NCBI GenBank assembly: GCA_041917755.1
Contig: JAYRWY010000016.1
Span: 112,866-176,865, forward strand
DNA from: Alphaproteobacteria bacterium
GTDB lineage: Bacteria; Pseudomonadota; Alphaproteobacteria; UBA9219; RGZA01
Direction of reading: 5' to 3'
DNA: 64,000 bases
In this document: one piece after another, positions 2,318-7,836 of the stretch
Numbering within the stretch: position 1 is the stretch's first letter
How the letters are laid out: each line of letters opens with the position of its first letter
Position numbers and translations under genes: made by a program
Notes under the pieces: model-generated
What the model was told of the DNA's origin: nothing
The model's input: only the letters and a program-made list of their open reading frames with translations
Databases searched by the model: none

Positions 2318-3490
2318 ATGAACATTCATGAATACCAAGCCAAAGAACTCCTCCGCCGTTATGGCGTAAACGTGCCCCGTGGCGGCGCTGCATTCACTGT
2401 AGAAGAAGCAGAAAAGGTTGCCAAGGATTTGGGCGGTTCATTATGGGTAGTGAAATCACAAATCCATGCAGGCGGTCGCGGTAAAGCCGGCGGTGTAAAA
2501 GTTGTAAAGAGCATCGATGCTGTGAAACTTGAAGCGCAACGCATGTTGGGCATGACCCTTGTAACACACCAGACAGGCCCCAAGGGACAAAAAGTTGGCC
2601 GTATTTACATTGAAGAAGGTTGCGATATTAAGCGCGAACTTTATTTAGGTCTTCTGGTTGATCGTGCAACCAGCCGCGTAACCGTGATGGCATCCACCGA
2701 AGGCGGTATGGACATCGAAGAAGTTGCAGCAAAGCATCCAGAAAAAATCCAGAAATTCTCCATTGACCCAGCCACCGGCATGCAAGCATTCCATGCGCGC
2801 AAAGTTGCATTTGGTCTTGGACTTGAAGGCGCGCAGGTCAATAACTGCGTGAAATTCCTGCTTGGTATGTGGAAAGCATTCAACGAGCTGGATTGCGCCA
2901 TTGTTGAAATCAACCCGCTGGTTGTAACCGGTGCAGGCGATGTGATTGCCCTTGATGCAAAGGTAAACTTCGATGACAACTCGCTCTTCCGTCAAAAGGA
3001 AGTGTCGGGTATGCGCGATGAAACCGAAGAAGATCCAGCAGAATTGGAAGCAACCAAGAACGACCTGAACTATGTAAAACTCGATGGCAACATCGGCTGC
3101 ATGGTGAACGGTGCAGGCCTTGCTATGGCCACCATGGATATCGTGAAGCTGTATGGCGGCGAACCAGCCAACTTCCTCGATGTGGGCGGCGGCGCAACCA
3201 AGGAACGCGTGACCAAGGCATTCAAGATTATTCTTTCCGATAAGAACGTGAAGGGAATTTTCGTGAACATTTTCGGCGGCATTATGCGCTGCGATATTAT
3301 TGCAGATGGCATCATCGAAGCCTCGAAGGAAGTAAAGCTGAGCGTGCCATTGGTGGTGCGCCTTGAAGGTACCAACGTCGATTTGGGTAAAAAGATGCTC
3401 GCGGAAAGTGGCTTGCCGATTGTTGCCGGCGACAACCTCTCTGATGGCGCAAAGAAAATCGTCGCTGCTATTTCAAAAAAAGCTGCTTAA
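2318..3490 (+). CDS. sucC: Succinyl-CoA synthetase beta subunit
   Basis: [58 protein letters not shown]. Confidence 0.99.
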
Positions 3491-3515: not shown

Positions 3516-4403
3516 ATGGCTGTTCTCGTAAATAAAGATACCAAAGTAATTTGTCAGGGTTTCACCGGCTCGCAAGGTACCTTCCACTCGCAGCAAGCGA
3601 TTGCGTATGGCACCAAGATGGTTGGCGGCGTAACCCCGGGTAAAGGTGGCGGCGTTCATCTTGACCTTCCTATTTTTGATACCGTGCATGAAGCCGTTTC
3701 AAAAACCGGCGCAAACGCATCGGTGATTTATGTTCCACCTCCATTCGCAGCCGATGCGATTTTGGAAGCAGTGGATGCAGAAATTCCATTAGTTGTTTGC
3801 ATCACCGAAGGTATTCCTGTTCTGGATATGGTGCGCGTAAAGCGTGGCCTGTCGGGCACCAAGACCCGTCTGATTGGACCAAACTGCCCAGGTATTATTA
3901 CCCCAGGCGAATGCAAGATTGGTATTATGCCGGGCCACATTCACATGCGCGGTAAAATCGGTATCGTGTCACGCTCTGGTACATTGACCTATGAAGCCGT
4001 TGCACAAACCACCGCTGCTGGCCTTGGCCAAACCACCTGCATCGGTATCGGCGGCGACCCAGTAAACGGTACCAACTTTGTTGACGCGCTTGACCTGTTC
4101 CTGAATGATCCTGAAACACAAGGCATCATCATGATTGGTGAAATCGGCGGTAGCGCAGAAGAAGAAGGCGCAGAATTCTACAAGCGCTCGAAGATCAAGA
4201 AACCAATCGCTGGCTTTATTGCCGGTGTAACGGCACCTCCGGGTCGCCGCATGGGCCATGCTGGCGCAATCATCTCGGGCGGCAAGGGTTCTGCTCAAGA
4301 CAAGATGGAAGCTATGCGCAGCGCAGGATTTGTTGTAACCGATAATCCAGCTAAGCTCGGCGAAACCATGCAGGCTGCCATGCAAGGTAAGAAAGCTGCT
4401 TAA
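3516..4403 (+). CDS. sucD: Succinyl-CoA synthetase alpha subunit
   Basis: [36 protein letters not shown] (phospho-His). Confidence 0.99.
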
Positions 4404-4433
4404 TACATAGCGCGACTGCGCTATTCCAAACAC

Positions 4434-4472
4434 AAAAATCCCCGCTTGGAAATATCCAGCGGGGATTTTTTT
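4434..4472 (+). terminator. Intrinsic terminator after sucD
   Basis: AAAAATCCCCGCT-loop-AGCGGGGATTTTTTT. Confidence 0.9.
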
Positions 4473-4500
4473 ATGGGCACATGGATGATGGGCATCAGAT

Positions 4501-4545
4501 AAAACAAAGAAGGCAGCCTTGTGTCGCCTAGAGCGAGCTGCCTTC
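4501..4545 (-). terminator. Minus-strand intrinsic terminator downstream of the 22-aa ORF
   Basis: Stem GAAGGCAGC (4509-4517) / GCTGCCTTC (4537-4545). On the minus strand it is followed by TTTGTTTT. Confidence 0.75.
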
Positions 4546-4593
4546 CTAATTTTATCTCAAAACGCCTCGTTCGTAGTGGTCGCTAATCGTAGC

Positions 4594-4662
4594 TTAATGC
4601 ATTACGAAATAGCCAATAACGCCAACTACTAGAACTACGATGAAAAGTACTTCCTTTTTCAT
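4594..4662 (-). CDS. Unannotated 22-aa single-TM microprotein MKKEVLFIVVLVVGVIGYFVMH
   Basis: Translated by hand, below the ORF-track cutoff. ATG at 4662 and TAA at 4594-4596. SD-like AAAGGGAGAG 5 nt upstream, basic N-terminus followed by a hydrophobic helix, and a dedicated terminator. Confidence 0.75.
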   Translation of the reverse strand: MKKEVLFIVVLVVGVIGYFVMH

Positions 4663-4714
4663 AACCGCTCTCCCTTTGGTGTGCCCAACAAACCGCATGG
4701 CTTGTTACAGGATG

Positions 4715-4746
4715 ATTATCCCATAACACGCTTAAACCGCTGTTAA
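4715..4746 (-). promoter_or_regulatory. CtrA-type box TTAA-N7-TTAA (4732-4746) with an extended -10 (TGgGATAAT) 11 nt downstream, facing the microprotein
   Basis: Minus strand reads TTAA CAGCGGT TTAA GCGTGTTATGG GATAAT. The box straddles the expected -35 position. Confidence 0.55.
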
Positions 4747-4929
4747 GCGGGCGGCCAGCAAGGCGCATTGCTGCACAGCATGATGTGCGCTGCGATAAAA
4801 CCAACAGCGAGATAGTTCAATGTTTTAGCGGGTTTTAGGGGTTATTCCTCTCGCAATTGCAAAGCCAGATAACTTCTTGCTATGCTGTGCGTTCATTTAC
4901 AAACCGCTTTTTATGGACAGGCAGAACAC

Positions 4930-7836
4930 ATGTCGCAGTCGAATACGCAGATGGCAAATTTCTCGTTTCTTTTTGGCACCAACGCCGACTTTATCGGCGA
5001 ACTATATGAGCGCTACCTGGCTGATAGCAGCAGCGTTGACCCAAGCTGGCAGAGCTTTTTTTCCGAATTAAAAGATGACGCGCCAAACATCGCCAAAGAA
5101 TTGCGCGGTGCAAGCTGGGATAAACAAACCAGTAAAAAAGTGATTGGCGTGAAAATTGATATGCCTGCACCTGCCAAGGGCGCAAAGGGCGATGCAAAAC
5201 CAGCAGCTGCTGCTAACACCAGCGTTGATGCCCAAGAAGTTGCACGTCAATCAGTGCGCGCGTTAATGATGATCCGCGCCCACCGCGCGGTAGGTCACAT
5301 GATGGCCAATCTTGATCCACTGGGTATCAAAGTGCCTACGCCGATTGCCGAACTCGAGCCATCTTTCTGGGGCTTTGCACCTGAAGATATGGATAAGCCA
5401 ATCTTTATTGATGGTGTGCTTGGCCTGCAGACTGCAACGTTAAAAGAAATTTTGAATGTATGCCGCAGCACCTATTGCCGCAGCGTGGGTTATGAATTCA
5501 TTCACGTACAAAACCACGACCAAAAACAATGGCTGCAATCGCACATTGAAAATACTGTTCCATCCTTCAATAAGGCTGGCAAGACCACCATTTTAGAACA
5601 ACTGACCAAGGCCGAAAGCTTTGAAAAGTTCTTGGCAGTCAAATTCCCTGGCACCAAGCGCTTTGGATTGGAAGGCGGCGAGTCCACCATTCCGGCTATT
5701 CACACCATCTTGGAACGCGCAGCAGATTTAGGCGTGAAAGAAGTTGTGTTTGGTATGGCCCACCGCGGTCGTCTTAATGTGCTGACCAATATTTTGGGTA
5801 AATCCTACACCGCGATGTTTGCAGAATTCCAAGGTACACCTGCTTATCCTGAATCCGTTCAAGGTTCGGGCGACGTGAAGTACCATATGGGTCTTTCCAA
5901 AGACCGTGAATTCAACGGCAAGACCGTGCATCTCACACTCTCCCCTAACCCATCCCATCTTGAATTCGTCAACCCCGTTGTCATGGGCCGTGTACGCGCC
6001 AAGCAACAACAACGCGCGGGTAAAACCAGCAATCTGGAAGATAAGGATTTTAACAGCGTCGTTGGCATTTTGATGCATGGCGACGCCGCGTTTGCTGGTC
6101 AAGGTGTGGTTGCAGAAACCATGGAATTGATGGAGCTGAAAGGTTATCGCACCGGCGGTACCATTCACATCGTCATCAATAACCAAGTAGGCTTTACCAC
6201 CAACCCAGAATATTCCAAGTCATCCTACTATTGCTCCGACATTGCTAAAAAAGTTCAAGCACCAGTATTCCATGTGAACGGTGATGATCCAGAAGCAGTG
6301 GCGCATGTTGCAAAAATTGCGATGGATTACCGCCAAGAATTCAAGCAAGACGTGGTGATGGACATTGTGTGCTATCGCCGCCAAGGCCATAACGAAGGTG
6401 ACGAACCCGCATTCACCCAGCCACGCATGTATAAGGTGATTAAAAACCTGACCACCACGCGTGAATTATATGCGCGCAAATTGGTTGCCGAAGGTAGCCT
6501 GACCCAAGAAGAAACCGACAAGATCCAAAATGATTTTGTCGCTGGTCTTGAAAAAGACTTTGCATCATCCCCAAGCTATAAGCCCAACAAGGCTGAATGG
6601 TTGGAAGGCCAATGGTCGGGCCTTGAAGTTGCATCAGGTGAAGATCGCAGCGGCAACACCGCCGTTGACCTCACTGTATTGCGTGAAATCGGCAAGAGCA
6701 TTTCATCATGGCCGCAAGGTTTTGATATCAACCCGAAAATCGCCAAGCAGCTGGAAGCACGTTTGCAAGCCACCAGCACCGGCGAAGGTATTGATTGGGG
6801 TACAGCAGAAGCACTCGCATTCGGCGCATTACTGATTGAAGGAACGCCTGTGCGTTTATCCGGCCAGGATTGCGGCCGTGGTACATTCTCGCAGCGTCAC
6901 TCGGTGCTGGTCGATCAAACCAATGAAAACCGTCATGTTCCGCTCAGCCATTTGCGTGAAGGCAAACAATCCACTTATGAAGTGATTGATAGCCCGCTGT
7001 CCGAAACATCGGTGCTTGGCTTTGAATATGGCTATGCGCTTGCTGAACCACACGCCTTGGTGATGTGGGAAGGCCAGTTTGGTGACTTTGCCAACGGCGC
7101 GCAGGTGATTATCGATCAGTTCATCGCATCATCGGAAACGAAGTGGTTGCGTATGTCCGGTCTTACCCTGCTTCTGCCACACGGCTATGAAGGACAAGGT
7201 CCAGAGCATTCATCAGCGCGTCTTGAACGTTTCTTGCAACTATCGGCAGAAGATAATTGGCAAGTTGCCAATTGCACCACGCCCGCAAACTACTTCCATA
7301 TTTTGCGTCGCCAAATCCGCCGTCCATTCCGCAAGCCACTTATTTTGATGACGCCAAAATCACTCCTGCGTCACAAGATGTGCGTGTCATCGCTTGCCGA
7401 TATGGGCCCTGGCACCAAGTTCCAGCGCGTAATTGGCGAAACCAATACCAATCTGGTGGAAGATAAGAAAATTCGCCGCGTGGTATTGTGCACCGGTAAA
7501 GTCTATTACGATCTGGTGGCTGAACGTGATGCACGCGGTATCAAGGATATTGCGATTGTCCGCGTGGAAGAACTGTATCCATTCCCTGCCAAGCCATTGG
7601 CGGAGCAGTTCAAGCGTTACTCCAAGGCGGAAGTGGTATGGTGCCAAGAAGAACCCGCGAATATGGGTGCGTGGTTCTTCGTTGATCGCAAGATTGAAGC
7701 GGTACTCAATGATTGTGGCCGCAAGGAACGCCCAAGCTATGTGGGCCGCGTGGAAGCCGCATCCCCTGCAACCGGTTACCTGAAACGTCACAACAAGGAA
7801 CAAGCCGAGTTGATTGATAAGGCGCTTGGTAAGTAA
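4930..7836 (+). CDS. sucA: 2-oxoglutarate dehydrogenase E1
   Basis: KRFGLEGGE, GMAHRGRLN, GDVKYH, HGDAAFAGQG, YEGQGPEHSSARLERFLQ. Start moved from the track's 4882 to the ATG at 4930. Confidence 0.99.
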   Translation: MSQSNTQMANFSFLFGTNADFIGELYERYLADSSSVDPSWQSFFSELKDDAPNIAKELRGASWDKQTSKKVIGVKIDMPAPAKGAKGDAKPAAAANTSVDAQEVARQSVRALMMIRAHRAVGHMMANLDPLGIKVPTPIAELEPSFWGFAPEDMDKPIFIDGVLGLQTATLKEILNVCRSTYCRSVGYEFIHVQNHDQKQWLQSHIENTVPSFNKAGKTTILEQLTKAESFEKFLAVKFPGTKRFGLEGGESTIPAIHTILERAADLGVKEVVFGMAHRGRLNVLTNILGKSYTAMFAEFQGTPAYPESVQGSGDVKYHMGLSKDREFNGKTVHLTLSPNPSHLEFVNPVVMGRVRAKQQQRAGKTSNLEDKDFNSVVGILMHGDAAFAGQGVVAETMELMELKGYRTGGTIHIVINNQVGFTTNPEYSKSSYYCSDIAKKVQAPVFHVNGDDPEAVAHVAKIAMDYRQEFKQDVVMDIVCYRRQGHNEGDEPAFTQPRMYKVIKNLTTTRELYARKLVAEGSLTQEETDKIQNDFVAGLEKDFASSPSYKPNKAEWLEGQWSGLEVASGEDRSGNTAVDLTVLREIGKSISSWPQGFDINPKIAKQLEARLQATSTGEGIDWGTAEALAFGALLIEGTPVRLSGQDCGRGTFSQRHSVLVDQTNENRHVPLSHLREGKQSTYEVIDSPLSETSVLGFEYGYALAEPHALVMWEGQFGDFANGAQVIIDQFIASSETKWLRMSGLTLLLPHGYEGQGPEHSSARLERFLQLSAEDNWQVANCTTPANYFHILRRQIRRPFRKPLILMTPKSLLRHKMCVSSLADMGPGTKFQRVIGETNTNLVEDKKIRRVVLCTGKVYYDLVAERDARGIKDIAIVRVEELYPFPAKPLAEQFKRYSKAEVVWCQEEPANMGAWFFVDRKIEAVLNDCGRKERPSYVGRVEAASPATGYLKRHNKEQAELIDKALGK

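Follow-up and report, generated by a model that had tools for sequence, protein, structure and literature searches.

A conserved minus-strand unit between sucD and sucA that probably encodes a 22-residue membrane peptide in an uncultured alphaproteobacterial lineage

Among known systems, the closest in kind to the small gene analysed here appear, by analogy, to be KdpF (29 amino acids, aa), MgtR (30 aa) and MgtS (31 aa), each a lone helix by which a transporter is stabilised or regulated (PMC12648545). The small gene is an open reading frame (ORF) of 22 codons on the minus strand of a 64,000-nucleotide (nt) stretch of an alphaproteobacterial genome (assembly GCA_041917755.1, contig JAYRWY010000016.1, positions 112,866 to 176,865), to which we refer as the window and in which coordinates are given below; it sits in the gap between sucD and sucA. 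The original prediction, made from the letters of the window, had placed a self-contained minus-strand gene for a single-helix membrane peptide of 22 aa at this position, and our comparison bore this out: the changes among copies point to selection in one frame, the length is fixed, the signals around the ORF are conserved, and the unit recurs in a second genomic context. We assign a probability of about 0.6 to the reading as a whole, namely that this is a genuine, independently transcribed protein-coding gene for an accessory or modulatory membrane peptide whose production is timed by the cell-cycle regulator CtrA.

The likeness to KdpF, MgtR and MgtS lies in small size, in one transmembrane helix with few flanking residues, in the lack of a soluble domain, which would leave packing against a partner within the membrane as the means of action, and in a tendency to be missed by annotation. 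However, there is no sequence relationship, the 22-residue peptide is shorter than any of the three, and their genes are located in or next to the operon of the partner or in a defined stress regulon, whereas the small gene stands alone behind a cell-cycle-type promoter. The original prediction had likened the peptide to AcrZ (49 aa) and MgrB (47 aa), small inner-membrane modulators of larger membrane proteins that are twice as long. The analogy of kind stands but homology does not, since searches of Pfam and NCBIfam with the peptide, covering the family models of AcrZ, MgrB, KdpF, CydX and similar proteins, gave no match below E = 0.1. In addition, MgrB acts through its periplasmic tail, whereas the 22-aa peptide has neither such a tail nor a soluble domain. 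A profile search of the PDB returned a signal peptide as its sole match, at E = 1.3.

Read from 5' to 3' on the minus strand, the unit consists of the following parts:

4746-4732, minus strand: CtrA-type box TTAA-CAGCGGT-TTAA, at about -38 to -24 relative to the predicted transcript start
4723-4715, minus strand: extended -10 element TGgGATAAT (-10 hexamer at 4720-4715), 11 nt after the box
4706-4687, minus strand: stem-loop of 8 bp, beginning 1-3 nt after the predicted transcript start
4674-4668, minus strand: Shine-Dalgarno (SD) sequence GGGAGAG, with GGAG 7 nt 5' of the ATG
4662-4594, minus strand: ORF of 22 codons plus stop, encoding MKKEVLFIVVLVVGVIGYFVMH (sequence read; 12 distinct DNA versions)
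4593-4569, minus strand: 3' spacer of 25 nt from the stop codon to the terminator, 35% identical among relatives and variable in length
4568-4497, minus strand: long terminator hairpin of 26 pairs (predicted structure), preceded by an A-tract and followed by a U-tract

Copies were gathered by a DNA search of 40 relatives and from further assemblies fetched through relatives of SucA, which yielded 7 more loci; 12 distinct DNA versions of the ORF were obtained in total. G000 to G004 denote the five genomes of the window's genus, G000 being the source genome (2.14 Mb in 17 contigs), and G006 belongs to a second genus. The ORF is exactly 22 codons long in all 12 copies, and its start and stop do not shift in position. 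Variable sites number 11/4/20 at codon positions 1/2/3 (chi-square p = 0.004, a value that overstates the case because the copies are related), and the median dN/dS (ratio of nonsynonymous to synonymous divergence, Nei-Gojobori method, NG86) is 0.125 at a median dS of 0.79; the control frames over the same stretch gave a dN/dS of 2.0 (+2) or contained stops (+1). For example, dS is 0.93 and dN 0.02 between G000 and locus L045. The replacements are conservative, being exchanges among V, I, L and M or of Y to F, and the ORF is free of insertions and deletions, which are many in both untranslated regions (UTRs). Start, stop and peptide are preserved over a dS of ~0.8-1.2 and in two genomic contexts. 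The pattern suggests purifying selection confined to the frame of the ORF, and the small gene is very probably real and translated.

Conservation is restricted to the unit. Among the five genus genomes the promoter block is 92% identical, the ORF 86% and the hairpin core 89%, against 35-46% in the gap outside the unit; four-fold degenerate sites of sucD are only ~60% identical among four of these genomes, and therefore the flanks have diverged while the unit was retained. The original prediction had proposed a comparison of homologues, synteny and dN/dS as a check, and had held that an unconserved ORF between conserved flanks would count against the gene; the opposite was seen, the ORF being far better conserved among the five genus genomes than its flanks.

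Positions 4498-4788 were matched in all four other genomes of the genus at 72-81% identity, and in G006 the ORF alone was matched. At all 7 loci from the fetched assemblies the ORF is again on the minus strand in the gap from sucD to sucA, and 11 of the 12 copies occupy this place. In G006, by contrast, sucD is on another contig, and the ORF is flanked by the end of a transpeptidase (penicillin-binding protein) gene and by aat, both of which run in the same direction as the ORF. The G006 unit has TGcGATACT 11 nt after the second TTAA, GGAGG 7 nt 5' of the ATG and a hairpin of its own with TTCTTTGTT. This context indicates that the unit has no functional tie to the suc genes; of the description of the gene as lying inside the suc cluster, the location holds in the window and the functional meaning does not.

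The distribution beyond these genomes is narrow. The small gene is single-copy in the source genome and present in five of the seven other genomes of the family; in the other two, which represent a third genus, nothing was matched anywhere, and four relatives with SucA N-terminal regions 66-67% identical have no small gene 5' of sucA. With a hidden Markov model (HMM), neither 63 other genomes of the order nor 400 others sampled across the class yielded a copy, the weak matches being helices inside large proteins. Among 185,579 species genomes, a permissive pattern for the ORF in IUPAC ambiguity codes matched four metagenome-assembled genomes (MAGs), and the metagenome set gave no match; of eight query sequences (two forms extended at the N-terminus and six of the eight variants of 22 aa), none was present among ~15 billion predicted proteins. 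Taken together, the searches suggest a lineage-restricted gene and a narrow family.

In the peptide, the N-terminal MKKE is identical in every copy, as are V10, V13, V15, G17 and F19, and position 18 is occupied by Y or F. The apolar stretch covers residues 5-21 or 5-22, with a Kyte-Doolittle mean of 3.0 for residues 5-21, and all eight peptide variants have an apolar run of 17-18 residues (Kyte-Doolittle mean 2.8-3.4) after MKKE. On composition, then, the peptide has the features of one membrane-spanning helix with cytoplasmic positive charge, and a signal-peptidase site is absent. The composition is that expected of a single-pass helix that has its N-terminus inside, ends in two aromatic residues at the outer interface and lacks a periplasmic tail, and we consider it likely that the peptide spans the membrane. 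The ORF list of the window holds the 22-codon ORF as the inner part of an ORF of 34 aa. The longer form, from an upstream in-frame ATG at 4698, was rejected: this ATG is not conserved, and relatives have other upstream ATGs or none.

Transcription is predicted to start near 4708, which gives a leader of about 46 nt and agrees with the ~45 nt originally proposed. The leader opens with the stem-loop at 4706-4687, in which 98.4% of pair cells are paired across eight sequences; there are compensatory double changes at 3 pairs and 11 G.U cells, which would be A.C if read on the plus strand. Among 500 column shuffles only 2 reached its score, and slid registers were 22-53% paired. As the G.U pairs and compensatory changes fit the minus strand only, the stem-loop provides strand-specific, indirect evidence that a minus-strand RNA is made. 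A stem at the extreme 5' end is a classical stabiliser of mRNA. The 212-nt unit as a whole has a folding energy of -68 kcal/mol on the minus strand versus -56 kcal/mol on the plus strand.

The SD sequence predicted before the ORF was confirmed at 4674-4668, and every copy has GGAG or GGAGG at this spacing. The start codon is mostly paired in the predicted folds, where AUGAAAA pairs with UUUUCAU, and its unpaired probability is 0.02-0.18 in 8 of 9 copies. When this hairpin was compared with 500 synonymous recodings in the nine copies, the fraction of recodings as stable was 0.05-0.57; selected sequestration of the SD and start was accordingly rejected, and the hairpin appears to be a by-product of the Lys and Phe codons because the recodings are equally stable. 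Pairing of the SD region with the terminator loop (CGCUCU with AGAGCG) was also rejected, as the duplex predictions vary between copies.

These folds bear on the alternative that survives best, a type I toxin, that is, a membrane-damaging peptide like IbsC (19 aa), ShoB or TisB that is silenced by antisense RNA and mRNA structure. IbsC is the closest toxin in size and is likewise nearly all one hydrophobic helix made from a stand-alone short transcript. Size, near-wholly hydrophobic composition and a stand-alone transcript with structured UTRs thus recall IbsC-like toxins (PMC12648545), the start codon is predicted to be paired, and the sequence-invariant 3' hairpin could be a regulatory target. 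However, no direct repeat longer than 12 nt connects the divergent upstream region with the mRNA and no partner of the IstR or OhsC type is apparent; a general promoter scan reported no promoter-like site on either strand, although an overlapping antisense RNA may still be made. The SD is strong and well spaced, and the start-codon hairpin, as described above, does not seem to have been selected. Type I loci are usually multi-copy and patchy, whereas the small gene is single-copy and syntenic, occurs at the same place across the genus and beyond, and evolves at a dN/dS of 0.125. A toxin is therefore unlikely. By analogy with the small membrane proteins introduced above, we tentatively favour, at slightly less than even odds, a modulator that binds a partner rather than a toxin.

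The 3' end of the unit is formed by a long hairpin with the core GAAGGCAGC...GCTGCCTTC, followed by TCTTTGTTTT, which ends at 4501. Its 26 pairs include a base made of the A-tract and U-tract, with AAAA before and UCUUUGUUUU after, and the consensus energy is -29 kcal/mol; a simple terminator scan misses it because the loop limit of the scan is 8. By its predicted form it qualifies as a bidirectional intrinsic terminator. A terminator with a U-tract had been foreseen here, and that much holds; the stem of 9 bp attributed to it gives way to the 26 pairs found. It had also been described as standing back-to-back with the terminator of sucD, and indeed the two are convergent and 30 nt apart:

4434-4470, plus strand: sucD terminator AAAAATCCCCGCT...AGCGGGGATTTTT, with 13-nt arms that are 100% complementary

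The sucD terminator is not conserved in relatives. At five loci (G003, G004, L044, L045 and L046) the hairpin abuts the sucD stop and is the sole terminator for both convergent genes, and at five others (G000, L040, L042, G001 and L049) an extra sucD terminator stands between it and sucD; these extra terminators are unrelated to the small-gene hairpin. Bidirectional terminators between convergent genes (PMC1852404; bioRxiv 10.1101/2022.10.23.513370) likewise combine an A-tract, a hairpin and a U-tract, an arrangement common to both genes in the five relatives. The small-gene hairpin differs from them in the unusual conservation of its upper stem and loop, and in G000 also by the second, separate terminator of sucD. 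The inner stem and loop (CUCGCUCUAGGCGAC, 4509-4546) are nearly invariant in most copies, and in L049 the hairpin core is nearly unchanged although the SucA N-terminal region is 62% identical. Since the hairpin is kept even behind a separate sucD terminator, its conservation is best tied to the minus-strand transcript. In G002 (locus L004) an insert of ~80 nt separates the ORF stop from the hairpin, so the spacer is free to vary, unlike the ORF and the hairpin.

The near invariance of the hairpin core, loop included, even in L049, exceeds what a terminator needs, and together with the length of the whole RNA (only ~210 nt) and the presence of Hfq in the genome it could point to a transcript that is mainly or additionally a regulatory RNA, like SgrS/SgrT or RNAIII/hld, the 3' hairpin being the working part by base-pairing, Hfq binding or membrane targeting. 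However, L045 and G006 have another hairpin sequence of the same shape, keeping stem and U-tract as a terminator would, and no target can be proposed. Searches of Rfam with positions 4000-5300 gave sub-threshold matches only, driven by terminators, with none at or near the gathering score. The hairpin core sequence is unique in the genome, and a metagenome scan for it returned 7 contigs, all chance matches in GC-rich coding DNA without a hairpin. The strong frame-specific coding signal excludes a purely non-coding reading in practice, and a regulatory RNA, whether instead of the peptide or besides it, seems quite unlikely. A related and equally speculative idea, to which we give little credence, is a dual-purpose RNA timed by CtrA, which would encode one of the shortest conserved non-toxin membrane proteins, modulating a cell-cycle-controlled envelope or polar complex, and would carry a 3' hairpin with a second job; that job may be, for instance, to serve as a regulatory RNA end, as a handle for Hfq or another protein, or as a signal directing the mRNA to the machinery for membrane insertion.

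Both promoter elements that had been predicted, a CtrA-type box over the -35 position and an extended -10, are present at the coordinates listed above. The TTAA half-sites with a 7-nt spacing (N7) are kept in 10 of 12 copies while 4 of 7 spacer positions vary (the spacers seen are CAGCGGT, CAACGGC, CAGCGAT, TACCGGT and GTCCAAC). Of the 12 copies, 11, G006 among them, have TGnGAyAmT at a constant distance of 11 nt from the second TTAA; L049, with CAAGAT, is the exception. The box TTAA-N7-TTAA overlaps the -35 position in the same geometry as in Caulobacter, where one box at -35 is the usual layout of CtrA-activated promoters (PMC11264516); the promoters of fliQ, fliL and pilA site 1 likewise have the box over the -35 upstream of a -10 (PMC11264516). 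They differ in that the present lineage is uncultured and far from Caulobacter, that one copy has a spacing of N8, and that binding by CtrA and dependence on it are here predictions.

A CtrA orthologue is encoded in the genome at G000:C10:109805-110476 (425 bits versus a cut-off of 350 bits). Genome-wide there are 57 TTAA-N7-TTAA sites, 44 of which are intergenic, and spacings of 4-6 and 8-10 give 14-27 intergenic sites; this enrichment indicates that the box is in use in the genome. Several intergenic boxes take the extended form TTAACCAT. Example sites in G000 are C2:24225, C16:200665, C9:526 and C17:98440; a TTAACACGCCGTTAACCAT box is positioned 46 nt 5' of a citrate-synthase-like gene, and another box 60 nt 5' of a gene judged by eye to encode a D-Ala-D-Ala carboxypeptidase. 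In the four relatives without the small gene, no box was found 5' of sucA with one mismatch allowed. The box thus accompanies the small gene and not sucA, because it is missing upstream of sucA where the small gene is missing. Control of the small gene by CtrA is consistent with these observations and unproven, and we hold it at even odds.

The order in the window on the plus strand is sucC, sucD, gap, sucA, sucB and lpdA. sucA was named via Pfam, and the other names rest on order, size and Pfam families at related loci. The surrounding features are:

2318-3490, plus strand: sucC (name inferred from order, size and Pfam families on related loci)
3516-4403, plus strand: sucD (name inferred in the same way)
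core ~4771-4790, between the two divergent promoters: imperfect palindrome GCACA-TCATGC-TGTGC, in a block (4760-4799) that is 79% identical in the genus
4857-4885, plus strand: promoter-like site of sucA, TTGCAA-N17-CTATGC, conserved and ~110 nt from the CtrA-type box

The true extent of the gap between sucD and sucA is 4404-4929. The ORF list places the sucA start at 4882, an ATG that falls within the -10 element of the promoter-like site, and the start used by relatives is the ATG at 4930; MSQSNTQMANFSFLFGT lines up with residue 1 of P0001 and P0007. In relatives the palindrome reads TGCA-N10-TGCA, with CATG at its centre; the genus, L046 and L049 retain it, and it is missing 5' of sucA in the relatives without the small gene. 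It resembles a site for a dimeric regulator, and its membership in the small-gene unit is uncertain.

With these neighbours in place, a further explanation can be weighed, in which the unit works on behalf of the suc genes, separating sucCD from sucAB as an insulator or by antisense action, the box acts on sucA, and the ORF is a leader or by-product. The position of the unit between sucD and sucA in 11 of 12 copies, the role of the hairpin as sole sucD terminator in five relatives and the strong CtrA-type box before a citrate-synthase-like gene elsewhere in the genome would fit it. However, the unit of G006 is not located with the suc genes, a conserved promoter-like site at 4857-4885 belongs to sucA itself, the relatives without the small gene have no box 5' of sucA, and an insulator role would leave purifying selection on the peptide unexplained. 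The box as a regulator of sucA was rejected in particular, as it stands ~110 nt from the sucA promoter-like site and is absent where the small gene is absent. Service to the suc genes is thus very improbable. Least credible is a chance ORF or the decaying signal-peptide remnant of a lost gene; short hydrophobic ORFs are indeed common by chance and the sole PDB match is a signal peptide, but length, start, stop and peptide have been kept over the divergence and in the two contexts described above, with the 11/4/20 pattern of change, and for practical purposes this refutes a chance origin.

For the favoured reading of a CtrA-timed gene for a modulatory membrane peptide, we propose the following course of events. 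The promoter, with its extended -10 and the CtrA-type box at -35, would start an RNA of ~210 nt near 4708. This RNA would open with the conserved stem-loop, which probably shields the 5' end, would carry a good ribosome-binding site and the 22-codon ORF, and would finish at the long hairpin terminator, which in several relatives would also halt the convergent sucD transcript. Judged by its composition, the peptide would have a short cytoplasmic N-terminus, Met-Lys-Lys-Glu, followed by an apolar helix of 17-18 residues, just enough for the inner membrane; at the outer face the helix would close with Gly17, Phe19 and, between them, an aromatic residue, leaving essentially no periplasmic tail. 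A chain of 22 residues is still within the ribosome tunnel at release, so the peptide would insert into the membrane post-translationally, once it has left the ribosome, as other small membrane proteins are described to do (PMC12648545). By analogy, the peptide may act by helix-to-helix packing inside the membrane, which we favour over an action by disturbance of the bilayer. As it has no soluble domain, it is most likely an accessory or modulatory subunit acting within the membrane; it would belong to a larger membrane protein and be made when CtrA is active, and its partner would not be a suc enzyme.

Several observations weigh against this reading. A run of 17 apolar residues is at the lower limit for crossing a bilayer. 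The bacteria behind the copies are all uncultured and known from MAGs or assemblies (for example GCA_033762625.1, ERZ2855122 and JGI 3300081716), and the genomic context differs between genera and gives no pointer to a partner. Termination alone does not seem to explain the near-invariant upper stem and loop of the hairpin. For the link to CtrA, the box taken alone is weak, with a chance expectation of ~0.1 for TTAA-N7-TTAA in a gap of this size, L046 has TTTA in one half-site and G006 a spacing of N8, and the genes inspected beside other boxes are not classical CtrA targets.

Genes as short as this one escape standard annotation. The promoter, stem-loop, ribosome-binding site, selected ORF and terminator are conserved as one movable unit, a statement that is defensible from sequence comparison alone, and the peptide would found a new family within an already known kind, the very small membrane proteins. 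Its 22 residues are approximately the lower size limit for a membrane-spanning protein. In addition, the CtrA regulon of the lineage could be worked out from the boxes, and if the link to CtrA is true, a very small membrane protein would join the cell-cycle regulon of a poorly known alphaproteobacterial lineage.

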